From positions 12,513-76,512 of IMG/VR virus record IMGVR_UViG_3300005336_000019: DNA of 64,000 nt, one strand, 5' to 3'. Below, piece after piece: positions 9,033 through 41,201 of the stretch. A model generated the notes under the pieces. That model did no database searches. It was not told the DNA's origin and saw nothing but the letters and a program-made list of their open reading frames with translations. Origin of the DNA: a virus. Lineage: Duplodnaviria > Caudoviricetes. Numbering within the stretch: the first letter of the stretch is position 1; each line of letters opens with the position of its first letter. The translations under genes were made by a program, and so were the position numbers.

Positions 9033-9090
9033 GAAGGGGCTCCGGTTGCGGCCGGGGCCCCTTCTGCGTATCGTCTTTGACCTAGGCCAT
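9033..9090 (+). promoter_or_regulatory. Terminator-like hairpin with -35 (TTGCGG) in loop, -10 TATCGT and box TTGACCTAGGCCAT
   Basis: GAAGGGGCTCCGG-TTGCGG-CCGGGGCCCCTTC; 17-bp spacer to TATCGT 9069-9074; box 9077-9090. Confidence 0.7.
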
Positions 9091-12247: not shown

Positions 12248-12284
12248 CCAGGGCGAGTTCGATCAGATACAGTGGCCTAGGTCA
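12245..12284 (+). promoter_or_regulatory. Promoter TAGCCA-17-TACAGT abutting box TGGCCTAGGTCA
   Basis: Same -10/box register as at 2485-2501. Confidence 0.65.
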
Positions 12285-12300
12285 GGGAAGGAGGAAAGAC

Positions 12301-12450: not shown

Positions 12451-12885
12451 ATGGAGTTCCACGAGCGCTTCGCCGAGAAGGCTGCCGACACCGACTACTC
12501 CCGCTACCCCCAGCTCCAGGCGCTGAGCAAGTACGACATCAACGCGACGGCCGAGGCTCTGCGCCTGACCGCGATCCAGCTCGGCACCCACGTGCGCGGG
12601 TGGGGCATGCTGGACGACCTGACGCTCGACGAGCCGACGGTCATCACGGCCCTGCTGGCGCTGAAGCGGCGCTGGGACGACGAGGGGCACCTGGTCTCGG
12701 TCGACTTCGAGGAGTACTGGGACGCCACCGACACCCACAACTTCCCCTCCTCCCTGCTGGAGGAGATGAAGCGCCACCTCGTCCGCCAGTTCCTGGAGGG
12801 CAAGAAGGCCGAGCACGTCGCGGTCAGCAACCCGTACGGGATCTGGCTGTTCGACAAGGCCGTCCTGGAGGGGATCTTCAAGTGA
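12451..12885 (+). CDS. hypothetical protein
   Basis: High GC3, RBS. Confidence 0.85.
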   Translation: MEFHERFAEKAADTDYSRYPQLQALSKYDINATAEALRLTAIQLGTHVRGWGMLDDLTLDEPTVITALLALKRRWDDEGHLVSVDFEEYWDATDTHNFPSSLLEEMKRHLVRQFLEGKKAEHVAVSNPYGIWLFDKAVLEGIFK

Positions 12886-37642: not shown

Positions 37643-37786
37643 TTTTCCTTTTCCTCTCCGATACGAGAATGCGGGGGTCGCCTACTACGACCGCAGGGGA
37701 TCTTTCACCAGGAGAGCTGCCACGCAGATCACTGGAGTTGGCCTCACCCTGCCCAAGCGGAGTAAGGATTTCCGCAGGCACCGCCG

Positions 37787-37859
37787 TGCTCCTGGCAGGA
37801 ATTGAACCTGCGACATCCGGATCCGGAATCCGGCGCTCTATCCCCTGAGCTACAGGAGC
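37787..37859 (-). tRNA. tRNA-Arg(CCG)
   Basis: Cloverleaf; CCGGA-TTCCGGA-TCCGG; GGTTCAA T-loop; no encoded CCA. Confidence 0.95.
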
Positions 37860-37868
37860 TTTCCTCTC

Positions 37869-38264
37869 TCACCAGATGTCGTACAGCATCCGGCGAGGAA
37901 CCTTCTCGGCCTTCTCGTACAGCCGACGTTCGAGTTCGCCCTTCGTGCGGCGCCCGGCTTCCAGCTTGCTCTTCACGTAGCGCCGGTTGGCGCGCTCGTG
38001 CTTACCAGCCCAGTAGGTCCGGCTGGAACTGGGGGTCCAGGCCCCGGTGTAGGTCCACCAGCGAGCGGTACGCCTCACCTTCCGGGGCTGCGGCCTGCGG
38101 CCCTGCCTCTCGGCGTCACGGAGTTCCGCAGCGCTGTAGCGCAGGTCGTAGACCTCGTGCTCGCGCACCGGAGTGATCGGCCGCTTGCGCCAGTACATCC
38201 TGTAGCCGTCAGGCCAGTCGCGCTGGTCGAACTTTCCGGGCGTGTGATGCGTCGTCTTGCCCAT
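37869..38264 (-). CDS. very basic (Arg/Trp-rich) hypothetical protein inside tRNA array
   Basis: RBS AGGAGG, ATG; MGKTTHH...HERANRR...LYDIW. Confidence 0.8.
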   Translation of the reverse strand: MGKTTHHTPGKFDQRDWPDGYRMYWRKRPITPVREHEVYDLRYSAAELRDAERQGRRPQPRKVRRTARWWTYTGAWTPSSSRTYWAGKHERANRRYVKSKLEAGRRTKGELERRLYEKAEKVPRRMLYDIW

Positions 38265-38365
38265 CGGAATTCATCCTCCTAGGGCCGCGAATTTCGCGGA
38301 CCTAGGTGAATCCGGTGACGATGTCCATCACCCCTCCAAGCTGTTCAGGCACGGTTGTTCCCAAG

Positions 38366-38463
38366 TGCGCGAGGCAGGGATCGAACCTGCACTGGACGTC
38401 TCCACAGGGCCTTTCCGAGTGCCCTGTTCGCCGGGCTCTGACTCGGAGTTCCCTTACACGCGC
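38366..38463 (-). ncRNA. tRNA-like RNA with non-canonical D region and 10-nt anticodon-position loop (possible pseudoknot)
   Basis: Acceptor GCGCGTG/CTCGCGC-A, T arm GCAGG-TTCGATC-CCTGC, variable arm, ACAGGGC-ACTCGGAAAG-GCCCTGT; TCCGAGT in D region complementary to ACTCGGA. Confidence 0.75.
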
Positions 38464-38554
38464 GACCGCACTGCGCAATGCGGTCCTTTACCACCGACTG
38501 TAATTCCGACCGGGTTTTTCAGACCACGGAAGGATATGGTGTCGTCGGCACACG

Positions 38555-38627
38555 CTCTCCTGACTGGACTTGAACCAGTAACATCCGGATTAACAATCCG
38601 GCGCTCTGCCGGTTGAGCTACAGGAGA
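38555..38627 (-). tRNA. tRNA-Asn(GTT)
   Basis: CCGGA-TTGTTAA-TCCGG; cloverleaf. Confidence 0.95.
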
Positions 38628-38762
38628 TCGAATCTGAAATTGTAGTGGGCCTCATCCCTAGCACCACGCGGCGCACCGACCTTGTTCTGCTGCGCTTCTC
38701 AACTGTTCCGGTTGTCGGGCGGATGGCAACCGGACCGCACTCCTATCTCCGCCACGTGCACG

Positions 38763-38834
38763 CTCCCCCGTCTGGACTTGAACCAAAACTTCCGATTCCA
38801 GAGACCGGCGGTCTGCCAATTAACCTACGGGGGA
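38763..38834 (-). tRNA. tRNA-Gln(CTG)
   Basis: CCGGT-CTCTGGA-ATCGG; U1-A72. Confidence 0.92.
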
Positions 38835-38853
38835 TCGCTCTTGAATTGTTGGC

Positions 38854-38945
38854 AACCGGACGGCAATGCTTCCACGCATGGACTATCTTCGCATGTATGT
38901 CCCACCCGCCACAGTGGGGCTGCGTTGATAGCTTACCGTCCGGCC
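38854..38945 (-). ncRNA. putative structured RNA (multi-branch) between tRNA-Phe and tRNA-Gln
   Basis: 13-bp closing stem GGCCGGACGGTAA/TTGCCGTCCGGTT plus four internal helices. Confidence 0.55.
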
Positions 38946-38947
38946 AG

Positions 38948-39023
38948 TGGCCCCGGCCCGATTTGAACGGGCGACCTCTCGCTTTTCAGGCGAGCGCTCT
39001 TTCGCGAACTGAGCTACAGGGCC
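38948..39023 (-). tRNA. tRNA-Phe(GAA)
   Basis: CTCGC-CTGAAAA-GCGAG. Confidence 0.93.
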
Positions 39024-39174
39024 TTGCACCCCTTGATGTATAGCTGGGCAGGGGCCGCCCTCCACTCGCCTCCCGGAGAAGGTTGGCTCATGGACTCGCT
39101 TTGCCTCACTCTCTGCCCGGTGGATAGTGGCCTTGTGAGCCACGAACTCCACCGGAATCTGCCTCCGAAGCCAG

Positions 39175-39248
39175 CGGTCCCGACGGGATTTGAACCCGCG
39201 ACCTCTCGGATGACAACCGAGTGCTCTGCCGAACTGAGCCACGAGACC
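39175..39248 (-). tRNA. tRNA-Asp(GTC)
   Basis: CTCGG-TTGTCAT-CCGAG; G73. Confidence 0.95.
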
Positions 39249-39273
39249 ATTGCTTCTTACCGCTGTTGAGTTG

Positions 39274-39320
39274 AAAAGGGAGCCCCGCTTTCCCGGCCTC
39301 CGCCTTACGGCGGGGCTCCC
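39274..39320 (-). terminator. intrinsic terminator within tRNA array
   Basis: GGGAGCCCCGC...GCGGGGCTCCC-TTTT on minus. Confidence 0.65.
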
Positions 39321-39343
39321 GATAGACCCGTCAGGGGGTCTCG

Positions 39344-39417
39344 TGGAGATGGAGGGATTCGAACCCCCGTCCTTCCGATCCGTAGTCGGCTGCCCCATCC
39401 AACTGGGCCACACCTCC
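39344..39417 (-). tRNA. tRNA-Arg(ACG)
   Basis: GCCGA-CTACGGA-TCGGA; GGTTCGAATCC. Confidence 0.93.
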
Positions 39418-39507
39418 ATCAGCCTTTCACCCTTCGCGCCAAGCGTGACCAAGGCAGGATCCAGGCCGACCGCATCCAAGCCCCAGGAAGCCGTGAGGAT
39501 GCGGCAG

Positions 39508-39580
39508 TACGCCCTACTGGACTTGAACCAGTGACACGAGGATTAAGAATCCCCTGCTCTGCCAACTGAGCTAAGGGCGC
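39508..39580 (-). tRNA. tRNA-Lys(CTT)
   Basis: GGGGA-TTCTTAA-TCCTC. Confidence 0.95.
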
Positions 39581-39587
39581 GCGTTCT

Positions 39588-39710
39588 TCAGTTCTGTCTG
39601 TCGTCCTTGGGGCCCCAGTAGTGGCCCGTGTAGACGTGGACGGGGTATCCGTCCTTCTGCACCTTCTTCAGGTGCCCTTCGTACGTCCGAGCCTTGCACT
39701 TACAGCTCAC
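39588..39710 (-). CDS. 40-aa basic peptide within tRNA array
   Basis: RBS AGAAGG, GTG; MSCKCKARTYEGHLKKVQKDGYP... Confidence 0.55.
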   Translation of the reverse strand: MSCKCKARTYEGHLKKVQKDGYPVHVYTGHYWGPKDDRQN

Positions 39711-39829
39711 GATCGCACCTTCTTTCTTGTCCCGATTCCAACAGGAACCCCTGGTTTCCCGGGACAGCGTTCCACCAGGGGTCTGCCTAGCGTCCGGCCG
39801 GTTCTGTCCTCCCGATCCTTCTGCTGGCA

Positions 39830-39860
39830 TACGGCTTACGGATTATGAGTCCGCGCCGCA
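39830..39860 (-). ncRNA. free-standing CAU anticodon stem-loop
   Basis: TGCGGC-GCGGA-CTCATAA-TCCGT-AA-GCCGTA; no D or T arm. Confidence 0.55.
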
Positions 39861-39866
39861 CCTTCG

Positions 39867-39940
39867 TATCCCTGACTGGACTTGAACCAGTGGCCTTTCC
39901 CTTATGAGGGGAGTGCTCTGACCGACTGAGCTACAGGGAT
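39867..39940 (-). tRNA. tRNA with CAT anticodon (Met or Ile2)
   Basis: CTCCC-CTCATAA-GGGAA; A1-U72 paired, so not a typical initiator. Confidence 0.9.
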
Positions 39941-39945
39941 CTGCG

Positions 39946-40018
39946 AGCCCCCGACCGGAATTGAACCGATGGCATCCGACTTACGAAGACGGCGCTCTAC
40001 CGACTGAGCTACGGAGGC
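39946..40018 (-). tRNA. tRNA-Thr(CGT)
   Basis: CCGTC-TTCGTAA-GTCGG (one U-U mismatch). Confidence 0.92.
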
Positions 40019-40020
40019 AT

Positions 40021-40095
40021 GAACTCCGGGTCCTAGGAGGGACGCAGACTTGCATGGGATAGCGAGCTGAGAAACAACGCTAGGCCCCGGAGTTC
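40021..40095 (-). ncRNA. long-stem RNA A
   Basis: GAACTCCGGG-G-CCTAG...CTAGG-A-CCCGGAGTTC. Confidence 0.55.
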
Positions 40096-40218
40096 TGTCG
40101 GGAGAATCCTGCCCGATCTTTAATCGACCACCCGCTGGATCGATGGACAGGTTCCTCCCTTTGCGAGACACCAACCTCGCGATTCCCAGGCTGTAGACCT
40201 GGCGGCAGCGGGAACTGC

Positions 40219-40284
40219 GGACTCCGGGCGGAGTGGACGACGTCGTAAGGGAAAGAGGTACTTCCGATACGCCGCCCGGAGTCC
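40219..40284 (-). ncRNA. long-stem RNA B (related to A)
   Basis: GGACTCCGGGCGG...CCGCCCGGAGTCC. Confidence 0.55.
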
Positions 40285-40286
40285 AG

Positions 40287-40361
40287 TCGGAATGGCGGGA
40301 TTTGAACCCGCGACCTCTCGCTCCCGAAGCGAGTGCTCTACGCAAGCTGAGCCACATTCCG
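40287..40361 (-). tRNA. tRNA-Pro(CGG)
   Basis: CTCGC-TTCGGGA-GCGAG; C1-G72. Confidence 0.95.
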
Positions 40362-40410
40362 ATTGAAGGTTCCCCAGGGTGACGGGGGGGTTGTAACCCC
40401 GGGGAACCAG

Positions 40411-40485
40411 CAGGGATAGCAGGATTTGAACCTACGACACGCCGCTTTGGAGACGGCTGCTCTGGCCGAACTGAGCTATATCCCT
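40411..40485 (-). tRNA. tRNA-Trp(CCA)
   Basis: GCCGT-CTCCAAA-GCGGC; G73. Confidence 0.95.
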
Positions 40486-40525
40486 TTGCCCGCCGGGAAG
40501 GTTTCCCCTCCCGGCTACAAGTACT

Positions 40526-40531
40526 ACTCTA
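40526..40531 (-). promoter_or_regulatory. -10 element TAGAGT heading the tRNA/ncRNA array
   Basis: Same TAGA(G/C)T hexamer precedes several other operons. Confidence 0.5.
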
Positions 40532-40574
40532 CCGCAGAACTTCGCTATCTCATAGCGGTTTTCGGTGACGAGCC

Positions 40575-41201
40575 TCACGCACGACGGAGGAAAGAGAAGC
40601 CCGTTCCACTGCTCGTGCACGTCTGAAGCGCCACCGAAGCGCCGAGACCGGCCGACGGGAAGGTGCCACCCTGGCTGCCCCGCTTCGCCCAGCCGTGGCC
40701 GTACACCCGGTACGTGCCCGCCAGGGCGCCCGAGCCGATGACCACCTTCCGGCCCACGGGCAGGTCATCCATCCAGGACCAGCCCATGTAGTTGTGCCCC
40801 GCCAGCGTCCTCACCCCTGCCGGGTAGTACAGCGTCAGCTTGCCCTGGTCGATGCAGCGCTGGGCCGACGCAACGGCCGACCCGCAGAAGACGTACCCGC
40901 CGATCCGGGTGACCGGCTCGGCGGGCTTCCTCTTCACCGTCTTGGTCGGCTTCGACTTGGGCTTCACCACGGGCTTCGGCTTGACCGTGGGAGCCTTCGT
41001 GCGGACCGGCGGAGTGAGGGTCGGCCGGGGCTCGGGTTTCGGTCCCTCGATCCGGCCGAGCGGTGGCAGCTCGATGCGCACGGAGGCGACCGCTCGCGCC
41101 GTGGCCGGTCGCTCCTCCGTTCCGGCCGCCGTGGCGGCCGTGCAGGTCGAGGCCACCAGGACCCCGGCAGCACTGAGCGCCAGCAGTCGTCTCCGTCTCA
41201 C
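40575..41201 (-). CDS. Secreted Pro/Lys-linker protein with C-terminal sortase-like domain
   Basis: Signal peptide; LAGHN and VALQTC motifs. Confidence 0.65.
   Translation of the reverse strand: MRRRRLLALSAAGVLVASTCTAATAAGTEERPATARAVASVRIELPPLGRIEGPKPEPRPTLTPPVRTKAPTVKPKPVVKPKSKPTKTVKRKPAEPVTRIGGYVFCGSAVASAQRCIDQGKLTLYYPAGVRTLAGHNYMGWSWMDDLPVGRKVVIGSGALAGTYRVYGHGWAKRGSQGGTFPSAGLGASVALQTCTSSGTGFSFLRRA

Follow-up and report, generated by a model that had tools for sequence, protein, structure and literature searches.

What is a 98-nt tRNA-like RNA doing in the tRNA array of a Streptomyces phage? The question is raised by a 64,000-nt stretch of viral DNA (positions 12,513 to 76,512 of the record IMGVR_UViG_3300005336_000019), to which we refer as the window. 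Its source is a 76.5-kb viral contig with an estimated completeness of about 40%. The window carries an array of 11 canonical tRNA genes on the minus strand (37786–40485; ARAGORN and Rfam). A 98-nt gene, the type 1 element, is co-oriented with this array and lies between tRNA-Asn and a 131-amino-acid open reading frame (ORF; Table 1). We conclude that the element is very probably a selected, structured derivative of tRNA-Leu that does not decode. The whole explanation, in which cluster-BM-like Streptomyces phages keep it in their tRNA array by purifying selection and it acts as a tRNA-Leu mimic, has in our estimate a probability of about 0.5. The mimic or decoy mechanism, taken on its own, is more tentative.

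The tRNA region of the window is 82–85% identical to that of the Streptomyces phages Kela, JustBecause, Satis, Quantum, Kradal and EhyElimayoE, which have genomes of about 185 kb each. The window phage is a cluster-BM-like Streptomyces phage. The stretch homologous to the type 1 element carries no annotation in the GenBank records of all six relatives. Satis and JustBecause are described as annotated with tRNAscan-SE and ARAGORN (PMC6687918). Conserved derivatives that do not decode are invisible in these six records because tRNA finders are the only tools with which such arrays are annotated in phages.

Detection of the Type 1 Element and Its Homologues

An initial annotation of the window had listed the sequence features of a tRNA with remodelled arms. 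All of them are present at 38366–38463 on the minus strand. The acceptor GCGCGUG/CUCGCGC forms six of its seven pairs, with a U6–U67 mismatch. A 7-bp stem with the 10-nt loop ACUCGGAAAG can be drawn. A GGG...CCC hairpin encloses UCCGAGU, which is the perfect complement of ACUCGGA, and is followed by GGCGAA.

ARAGORN makes no call at the element, either in the window or in 13 related loci, and the Rfam tRNA model likewise gives none. At gathering thresholds, the Rfam tRNA matches in the window number 11, all of them elsewhere, and RF00005 (tRNA) gives no match on the element even at E ≤ 10. The lone Rfam match on it at E ≤ 10 is to tRNA-Sec (RF01852), with 14.0 bits against a gathering score of 47. 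The score in locus L027 is 18.1 bits, there is no UCA loop, and identity as tRNA-Sec was rejected.

Thirteen distinct variants of the type 1 element, 95–98 nt long, were collected from GenBank phages and from viral and metagenome loci. A DNA pattern scan gave ten viral stretches, of which three were true homologues and seven unrelated. Searches with the downstream protein gave seven viral and nine metagenome loci. A hairpin-pattern search returned five stretches, all in contigs already in the set, and no further viral contigs. The covariance model built from the variants, R1, scores 110.2 bits on the window copy and at most 28 bits on the true tRNAs of the window, where the element is a single copy. 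In five of five complete or near-complete relatives, R1 finds exactly one strong copy per genome (75–110 bits). No description of the element was found in the literature searched, paper supplements lying outside that search.

We also considered coding potential across the element. The lengths of 95, 96, 97 and 98 nt differ by 1, 2 or 3 nt; a coding reading was rejected because these differences are mostly not whole codons.

A Conserved Core of Four Helices

The single-sequence fold of the window copy is beyond chance (z = −2.63; 2 of 200 shuffles fold equally well). The 13 homologues with their compensatory changes are more decisive than this fold. All 13 variants share four helices, namely an acceptor of 7 bp, a basal helix and a small hairpin of 4 bp each, and a 5-bp T arm. 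Over these 20 core pairs, 95.0% of 260 cells are paired. Ten pairs show changes on both sides, and 35 cells are changed on both sides. Of five measures, four had observed values that none of 500 shuffles attained; for the remaining one, further pair types, 434 of 500 did so. Paired cells in the slid controls amounted to 31.6–53.8%. The initial annotation had argued that the RNA is not the product of random decay, and the ten compensatory core pairs bear this out.

The T arm is paired in 100% of cells, with changes on both sides at three of its five pairs. Its loop starts with UUC (UUC-R-A) in 12 of the 13 variants and with UGC in L014. The acceptor stem is paired in 94.5% of cells and has three of seven pairs changed on both sides. 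It occurs in seven versions: four are fully paired (one with a G:U), two have a single wobble, and that of the window group has the U–U mismatch. The base A73 is invariant. The small hairpin is paired in 96.2% of cells, three of its four pairs are changed on both sides, and its loop is GACG in all variants except L025 (GACA). The type 1 element thus has an acceptor stem with an unpaired discriminator and a T arm with a 7-nt loop, as a canonical tRNA does. The D region is refolded, but the 4-bp helix at positions 10–13 has a GG just 5' of its 3' strand in 12 of the 13 variants. Helix and GG together could imitate the D-loop/T-loop tertiary core of tRNA-Leu that LeuRS uses.

The Centre of the RNA Is a Long Arm

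The central region can be drawn in two ways. The initial annotation described two separately remodelled arms in the D and anticodon positions whose loops pair with each other. The second model is a single long arm built from basal, middle and apical helices (Table 1), with a 4-nt bulge CAGA and the 8-nt loop GGCGAACA. We compared both on the nine window-like variants. In the long-arm model, 96.1% of 129 cells are paired and 2 of 15 pairs are compensatory. Pair 12:56 is G:C in four variants, C:G in three and A:U in two, and pair 21:46 shows one change from A:U to G:C. Shuffles gave mixed support over five measures (0, 97, 1, 493 and 2 of 500); slid controls were 16–49% paired.

The cloverleaf model, with a D hairpin and a 7-bp anticodon stem, is paired in 79.3% of cells, and none of its ten pairs is compensatory. 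Pairs 12:30, 41:56 and 43:54 are broken in three to five of the nine variants, with 12:30 broken in five. The long-arm fold is the more stable in nine of nine variants, by 5.1–25.8 kcal/mol. A cloverleaf can be drawn for the window, L011, L022 and L026 (23–24 pairs, −30 to −34 kcal/mol), and the GGG...CCC hairpin does match the ancestral D stem by homology with tRNA-Leu. The Kela group is unable to form it (−16 to −18 kcal/mol). The only cloverleaf that can be drawn has a 15-nt D loop, a 6-nt linker and a 10-nt loop in which the U33-like position varies in base. A bistable RNA in which the loops at the D and anticodon positions pair as a tertiary or switching contact is therefore, on pairing, covariation and energy, very improbable.

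These comparisons favour one long irregular arm, with the middle helix as a normal part of it. The complementarity between UCCGAGU and ACUCGGA that had been noticed at the outset is real and conserved, but it forms an ordinary helix within the arm and not a contact between two loops. A search of the homologues for covariation in this 7-bp pairing, proposed at the same time, did find a compensatory pair, but just one, so that its support is modest. The element is less exotic than was suggested.

RNAfold alone gives the acceptor, long arm, small hairpin and T arm in 9 of the 13 variants; it misses this four-part fold for the window, L011, Kela and L030. The arm itself occurs in three allele classes that are unrelated in sequence (window-like; Satis, L027 and L030; L014), all of them long irregular hairpins. 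In the Satis-like class, 95.2% of 42 cells are paired and 2 of 14 pairs are compensatory; its shuffle result (46 of 500) is weak with three sequences. A normal D arm and a 5-bp anticodon stem with a 7-nt loop were not found as a conserved fold of the type 1 element. None of the three classes has a 7-nt anticodon loop, and a Leu anticodon in such a loop is absent from all three. The proposal that the RNA does not decode agrees with this. A tRNA with an intron or an expanded anticodon loop was rejected by eye: it would need three separate insertions relative to tRNA-Leu, and the letters of the loop vary.

The 3' segment of about 35–60 nt next to the element diverges freely, and the element keeps its length. 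Between L018 and L019, the flanks are 89–98% identical and the element 56%; the upstream spacer is 97–98% identical, and the 3' flank has diverged together with the element. This local exchange in one pair of relatives and the three arm classes suggest that the site undergoes allele replacement.

Kinship with tRNA-Leu

A search of 61 genomes of the host genus with R1 gave two hits at E ≤ 1e-4, both to tRNA-Leu(UAG) (45.2 and 43.7 bits). It scored only 68 candidates per genome, so the lack of a hit in the other genomes means little. A looser search of the same two genomes gave tRNA-Arg(ACG) (29.7 bits), tRNA-Ser(GCU) (28.2 bits) and tRNA-Gly (about 26 bits) as the next best matches. The resemblance to tRNA-Leu pointed out initially is thus recovered, with tRNA-Leu(UAG) as the top match in both genomes that gave a hit.

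The variable arm, GU linker, T arm, acceptor and A73 are colinear between the type 1 element and tRNA-Leu(UAG). Like this class II tRNA of Streptomyces, the element has a 7-bp acceptor, A73, a canonical T arm, similar letters in the D region, and a variable arm formed by a 4-bp stem-loop with a 4-nt loop and followed by GU. Unlike it, the element is about 13 nt longer and lacks a D arm of normal size, a 5-bp anticodon stem and a 7-nt loop with a Leu anticodon. Three insertions set it apart, one in the D loop, one in the anticodon loop and one in the linker that joins the two arms. This part of the RNA folds instead into a single long arm, and tRNA detection misses the element. Judged by sequence comparison, the type 1 element is closest to tRNA-Leu(UAG) by descent. 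The canonical tRNAs of the relatives decode Trp, Pro, Thr, Met, Lys, Arg, Asp, Phe, Gln, Asn and Ile; no tRNA-Leu is among the ARAGORN and Rfam calls at the fetched tRNA loci.

Such an ancestry and the lost anticodon loop would also fit a functionless tRNA-Leu pseudogene in decay, carried along with the array. Phage tRNA arrays do contain degenerate copies, and the acceptor mismatch of the window subgroup points in the same direction. The paired and doubly changed core cells, the full compensation of most acceptor versions, the retention of a long arm in three unrelated alleles and the constant length beside a freely diverging segment all speak against decay. We regard a pseudogene as decidedly improbable.

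Kinship with transfer-messenger RNA (tmRNA) was ruled out for the type 1 element and for a second tRNA-like element, type 2, which is described below. The initial annotation had excluded it for the type 1 element on the lack of a G3:U70 pair, and this holds. Pair 3:70 is G:C in the window and in 10 of the 13 variants overall, A:U in two and U:A in one. The Rfam tmRNA model (RF00023) has no match on the type 1 element at E ≤ 10; ordinary tRNAs, taken as a control, reach 19–31 bits on it. When the ends of a host-genus tmRNA were read against the type 1 element, only the T loop was shared. Other curated families, such as Y RNA-like RNAs and T-box, are not found among the three Rfam matches at E ≤ 10 in 38100–38700. 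The type 1 element is outside the tRNA, tRNA-Sec and tmRNA families as they are defined.

Hudson et al. (2014, PMC4131195) describe in the mycobacteriophage DS6A a tmRNA that consists only of the tRNA-like domain, and report that tmRNA is strongly inhibited by a similar molecule, which may titrate SmpB. Like the type 1 element, this is a tRNA-like RNA without an anticodon arm that is encoded by an actinobacteriophage. Unlike it, the type 1 element has G3:C70, a variable arm of the Leu type and no tmRNA match. As described, the inhibition provides a precedent for a phage tRNA mimic that acts as a decoy. By analogy, the mode of action of the type 1 element is likely to be nearest to that of phage tRNA-like decoys and of the stable RNAs from the tRNA clusters of other phages. 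The tRNA cluster of phage T4 encodes two such stable RNAs, species 1 and 2, which are processed with the tRNAs and have tRNA-like ends. They resemble the type 1 element as small RNAs from a tRNA gene cluster; they belong to another lineage of phage and host, and are not known to be related to tRNA-Leu.

The Upstream Spacer

Between tRNA-Asn and the type 1 element lies a conserved, structured spacer of about 90 nt. It accompanies the element in 13 of 13 variants, and both are absent in the L021 lineage. It is more conserved than the element itself. RNAalifold predicts 24 pairs in the spacer, of which 12 are changed on both sides. Its invariant motif CAGUCGGUGGUAAAG occurs once in the window. 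The last hairpin of the spacer ends exactly at base −1. A hairpin at this position might impede RNase P, and a longer RNA that stays unprocessed would agree with it.

Alternatively, the type 1 element might be the 3' domain of an RNA of about 190 nt that is not cut at base 1 and in which the spacer could, for instance, dock on the 3' end of the tRNA-like part. The shared presence and absence, the covarying helices of the better conserved spacer and the missing leader are all compatible with this. An invariant UGGU in a single strand of the spacer could pair with an A73-CCA end, although neither side varies. On the other hand, no covariation links the spacer with the element, and no Rfam family including T-box matches in 38100–38700 at E ≤ 10. 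In the pair L018 and L019, the element and its 3' flank have diverged beside a nearly identical spacer, which suggests separable modules. We consider a single 190-nt RNA rather improbable.

A pairing of the first bases of the spacer with the 3' strand of the acceptor was examined by eye and rejected; it is possible in Kela, and L014, L022 and L027 show no covariation. Two further observations on the spacer are a possible long-range pairing GCCGAC:GUCGGU and, by eye, a 7-nt loop resembling an anticodon loop in the middle hairpin of several variants.

The Downstream Open Reading Frame

The 131-amino-acid ORF (P0001) downstream is basic and rich in Trp, and tRNA-Arg starts 12–15 nt after it in every phage locus found. 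It is preceded by an 8-codon upstream ORF and a 13-bp hairpin, both outside the tRNA-like RNA. All 14 phage variants have the upstream ORF (....TGFT-UAG). Outside phages, members of the ORF family lie at 16 chromosomal loci of Streptomyces (L037–L052). A related upstream ORF with a hairpin is found at 13 of these; there the upstream ORF ends in GFR-UAG, 41–47 nt before the main start. To judge by its layout, the arrangement looks like a leader-peptide device for translational control. None of the 16 chromosomal loci has a tRNA or tRNA-like element, the best R1 match being a single hit of 19 bits. The chromosomal loci have the device without a tRNA, and so the device belongs to the ORF and not to the tRNA-like RNA.

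P0001 has no Pfam or PHROG family (best E values 0.21 and 0.11), and neither do nine distant relatives. In the ESM Atlas it falls only into unnamed clusters. A profile search gave 13 representatives, and the AlphaFold model has a mean predicted local distance difference test (pLDDT) score of 48.3. Motifs of the family are M-S/A-R-T-A-H-H at the N terminus and LRYS..EL..A..GRRPxP in mid-protein. The members are small basic proteins, found in Streptomyces chromosomes as well.

A consensus scan found no sigma-70-like promoter in 37700–40700, which is a weak test for Streptomyces phages. Terminator-like sites in the same region number three, against 2.3 expected, and none lies between the type 1 element and the ORF. 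Contigs over 38185–38475 are uninformative on transcription: RNA runs X1, X4 and X6 have none, and X7, whose type is not recorded, has one of 335 nt.

Table 1. Coordinates of the type 1 element, its parts and related features (window numbering, except for the type 2 element)
Feature	Position	Strand	Remarks
tRNA-like RNA gene (type 1 element)	38366–38463	−	98 nt, four helices round one junction
Acceptor stem, 5' strand GCGCGUG	38457–38463	−	pairs with 38367–38373
Acceptor stem, 3' strand (38367–38373) and unpaired discriminator A73 (38366)	38366–38373	−	no CCA encoded
T arm GCAGG-UUCGAUC-CCUGC	38374–38390	−	5 bp, loop UUCGAUC; all cells paired
Small hairpin GGA-GACG-UCC with a fourth pair, U:A	38393–38404	−	4 bp, loop GACG; position of the tRNA-Leu variable arm
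Long central arm in place of D and anticodon arms	38406–38454	−	about 49 nt; covariation, energy
Basal helix AGGG:CCCU	38451–38454 with 38406–38409	−	long arm
Middle helix UCCGAGU:ACUCGGA	38441–38447 with 38414–38420	−	long arm
Apical helix GCCC:GGGC	38433–38436 with 38421–38424	−	long arm
Conserved structured spacer	38464–38553	−	about 90 nt; RNAalifold, 13/13 variants
Spacer hairpin, loop GCCGACG	38539–38553	−	spacer alignment
Spacer variable (middle) hairpin	about 38504–38531	−	spacer alignment
Spacer invariant motif CAGUCGGUGGUAAAG	38486–38500	−	spacer alignment
Spacer 7-bp hairpin	38464–38485	−	abuts acceptor base 1; spacer alignment
tRNA-Asn(GUU), canonical	38554–38627	−	immediately upstream; ARAGORN, Rfam
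8-codon upstream ORF MDIVTGFT-UAG	38302–38328	−	outside the tRNA-like RNA
13-bp hairpin, 5' arm with the stop codon of the upstream ORF, 3' arm overlapping the Shine-Dalgarno sequence of the 131-amino-acid ORF	38278–38306	−	
131-amino-acid ORF (P0001)	37869–38264	−	always follows the type 1 element
tRNA-Arg	37786–37859	−	3' of the 131-amino-acid ORF; ARAGORN, Rfam
GCCTAGGTCAAGG-like near-copies, examples	2492–2504; 9075–9087; 12275–12287	+; −; +	pattern scan
Type 2 element, about 118–126 nt	L021 2773–2890; L027 1094–1219; also L026, L030, L023, L029		unannotated

Possible Function

We propose that the type 1 element is co-transcribed with the tRNA array and that the host enzymes of tRNA maturation would excise it, by RNase P cleavage at base 1, trimming of the 3' end and CCA addition. 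This maturation is inferred because these enzymes need only the acceptor and T-arm half, which is intact here. The mature RNA, unable to enter decoding, would then act as a mimic through its upper body, which resembles that of tRNA-Leu. The partner would be a protein whose recognition of tRNA-Leu does not depend on the anticodon. Leucyl-tRNA synthetase (LeuRS), which does not use the anticodon, is one candidate and could charge the RNA; a host defence or sensor protein directed at tRNA is another.

Several observations weigh against this proposal. LeuRS of E. coli has been reported to need D-loop/T-loop elements. These are remodelled in the type 1 element, and charging is therefore doubtful. 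The U6–U67 acceptor mismatch is fixed in the window subgroup of four variants, and L030 has a C2–A71 mismatch. The 7-bp middle helix has one compensatory pair and one G:U, with an A–C mismatch in L011 and two end pairs lost in L026. The spacer hairpin abuts base 1 without a single-stranded leader. The families FemAB, PolyA_pol/CCA-adding and Leu_Phe_trans are absent from five of five complete or near-complete relatives, so that the phage genes nearby offer no obvious partner enzyme. The variants all belong to a single phage cluster, which limits the number of independent events.

The second-ranked hypothesis takes cleavage as the purpose of the element. In eukaryotic systems, mascRNA and the vtRNAs of gammaherpesviruses are tRNA look-alikes that are not aminoacylated and that recruit RNase P or RNase Z to set the RNA ends of their neighbours. 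In the phage, the type 1 element would be a processing landmark, or tRNA punctuation, cut by RNase P and by enzymes of tRNA 3' processing, and the excised piece would have no function of its own. The cuts would give the upstream spacer RNA a 3' end protected by a hairpin and the mRNA of the upstream ORF and ORF its 5' end. The arrangement is suggestive. In every phage locus, the ORF is preceded by a tRNA-like element that does not decode (type 1, or type 2 in L021, L023 and L029) and is followed by tRNA-Arg. The spacer, with its terminal hairpin at base −1, and the type 1 element are gained or lost together, and the scan gave neither a promoter in the region nor a terminator before the ORF. 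However, the promoter scan carries little weight in these phages, and the canonical tRNA-Asn about 90 nt upstream could punctuate equally well. Signals for cleavage leave the Leu-type variable arm with its near-invariant GACG loop, as well as the retained long arm, unexplained, and the chromosomal homologues of the ORF do without any tRNA-like element. We give a pure landmark a real but minor chance, below that of the mimic. Such a landmark would still document tRNA-like punctuation beside a leader-peptide-controlled gene in a bacteriophage.

Phage tRNAs are increasingly viewed as counter-measures against host defences that target tRNAs. If the type 1 element is indeed a mimic, a selected look-alike of tRNA-Leu without an anticodon would extend this idea from replacement tRNAs to mimics. 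It would also offer a concrete, small and genetically tractable test object in Streptomyces phages.

Other tRNA-like Elements and Minor Observations

In L021, L023 and L029, the spacer and the type 1 element are both missing, and the type 2 element precedes the ORF instead. L026, L027 and L030 carry type 1 and type 2 in tandem. The type 2 element combines a T arm and A73 with a D arm of the class II type and a hairpin in the anticodon position that is capped by GAAA or a 5-nt loop; its long extra arm covaries and carries the loop GCCUAGGACAA. In L021 it scores 39 bits on the Rfam tRNA model, and on the tmRNA model it has scores at the tRNA level only. It was not found in the window, where the sole test was a crude pattern of the loop motif that gave nothing below two mismatches.

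Type 1, type 2 and the further odd elements might form a repertoire of class II tRNA derivatives without anticodons that jam or bait a host factor acting on tRNA-Leu. The bait could be directed at a defence nuclease, a tRNA-modifying toxin or a charging sensor. These RNAs might still be matured, tailed with CCA and perhaps leucylated, because LeuRS ignores the anticodon. Rapid exchange would concern the long arm, with its three alleles inside conserved flanks, as expected in an arms race. This broader view is speculative and in our opinion unlikely.

A second small tRNA locus, outside the window, is present in the five relatives searched as whole genomes (L069, which is Kela 88200–89000, and L070–L073). 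It contains tRNA-Ile(GAU). Four of the five also have a class-II-like element of 85 nt there, in place of which Satis shows a 69-nt match. ARAGORN reads the anticodon of the 85-nt element as CUA in Kela and G003 and as undetermined in G002, and makes no call in G001. Going by this anticodon, an amber-reading tRNA is possible, in a phage with upstream ORFs that end in UAG. Next to the 85-nt element is another of about 118 nt, whose D arm is of class II. A further unannotated 85-nt tRNA-like element is located in Kela between tRNA-Arg and tRNA-Asp (MT310898.1, 122654–122738; L033 22655–22739). It has a Leu-type variable arm with the loop GAAA and an acceptor rich in G:U, scores 27 bits on R1 and has no counterpart in the window.

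In L017, the closest complete relative, ARAGORN calls no tRNA-Asn. At about 2560–2720 of this locus, the part 5' of the tRNA-Asn anticodon loop is swapped for an open frame with a C-x-x-C-H motif. Its sequence would fit either an insertion or an intron that carries a gene resembling a homing endonuclease.

A motif resembling GCCTAGGTCAAGG is over-represented in the window. It has 24 matches with at most three mismatches, against 11.6 expected and a shuffle maximum of 20, and perhaps serves the phage as a recurrent regulatory motif.

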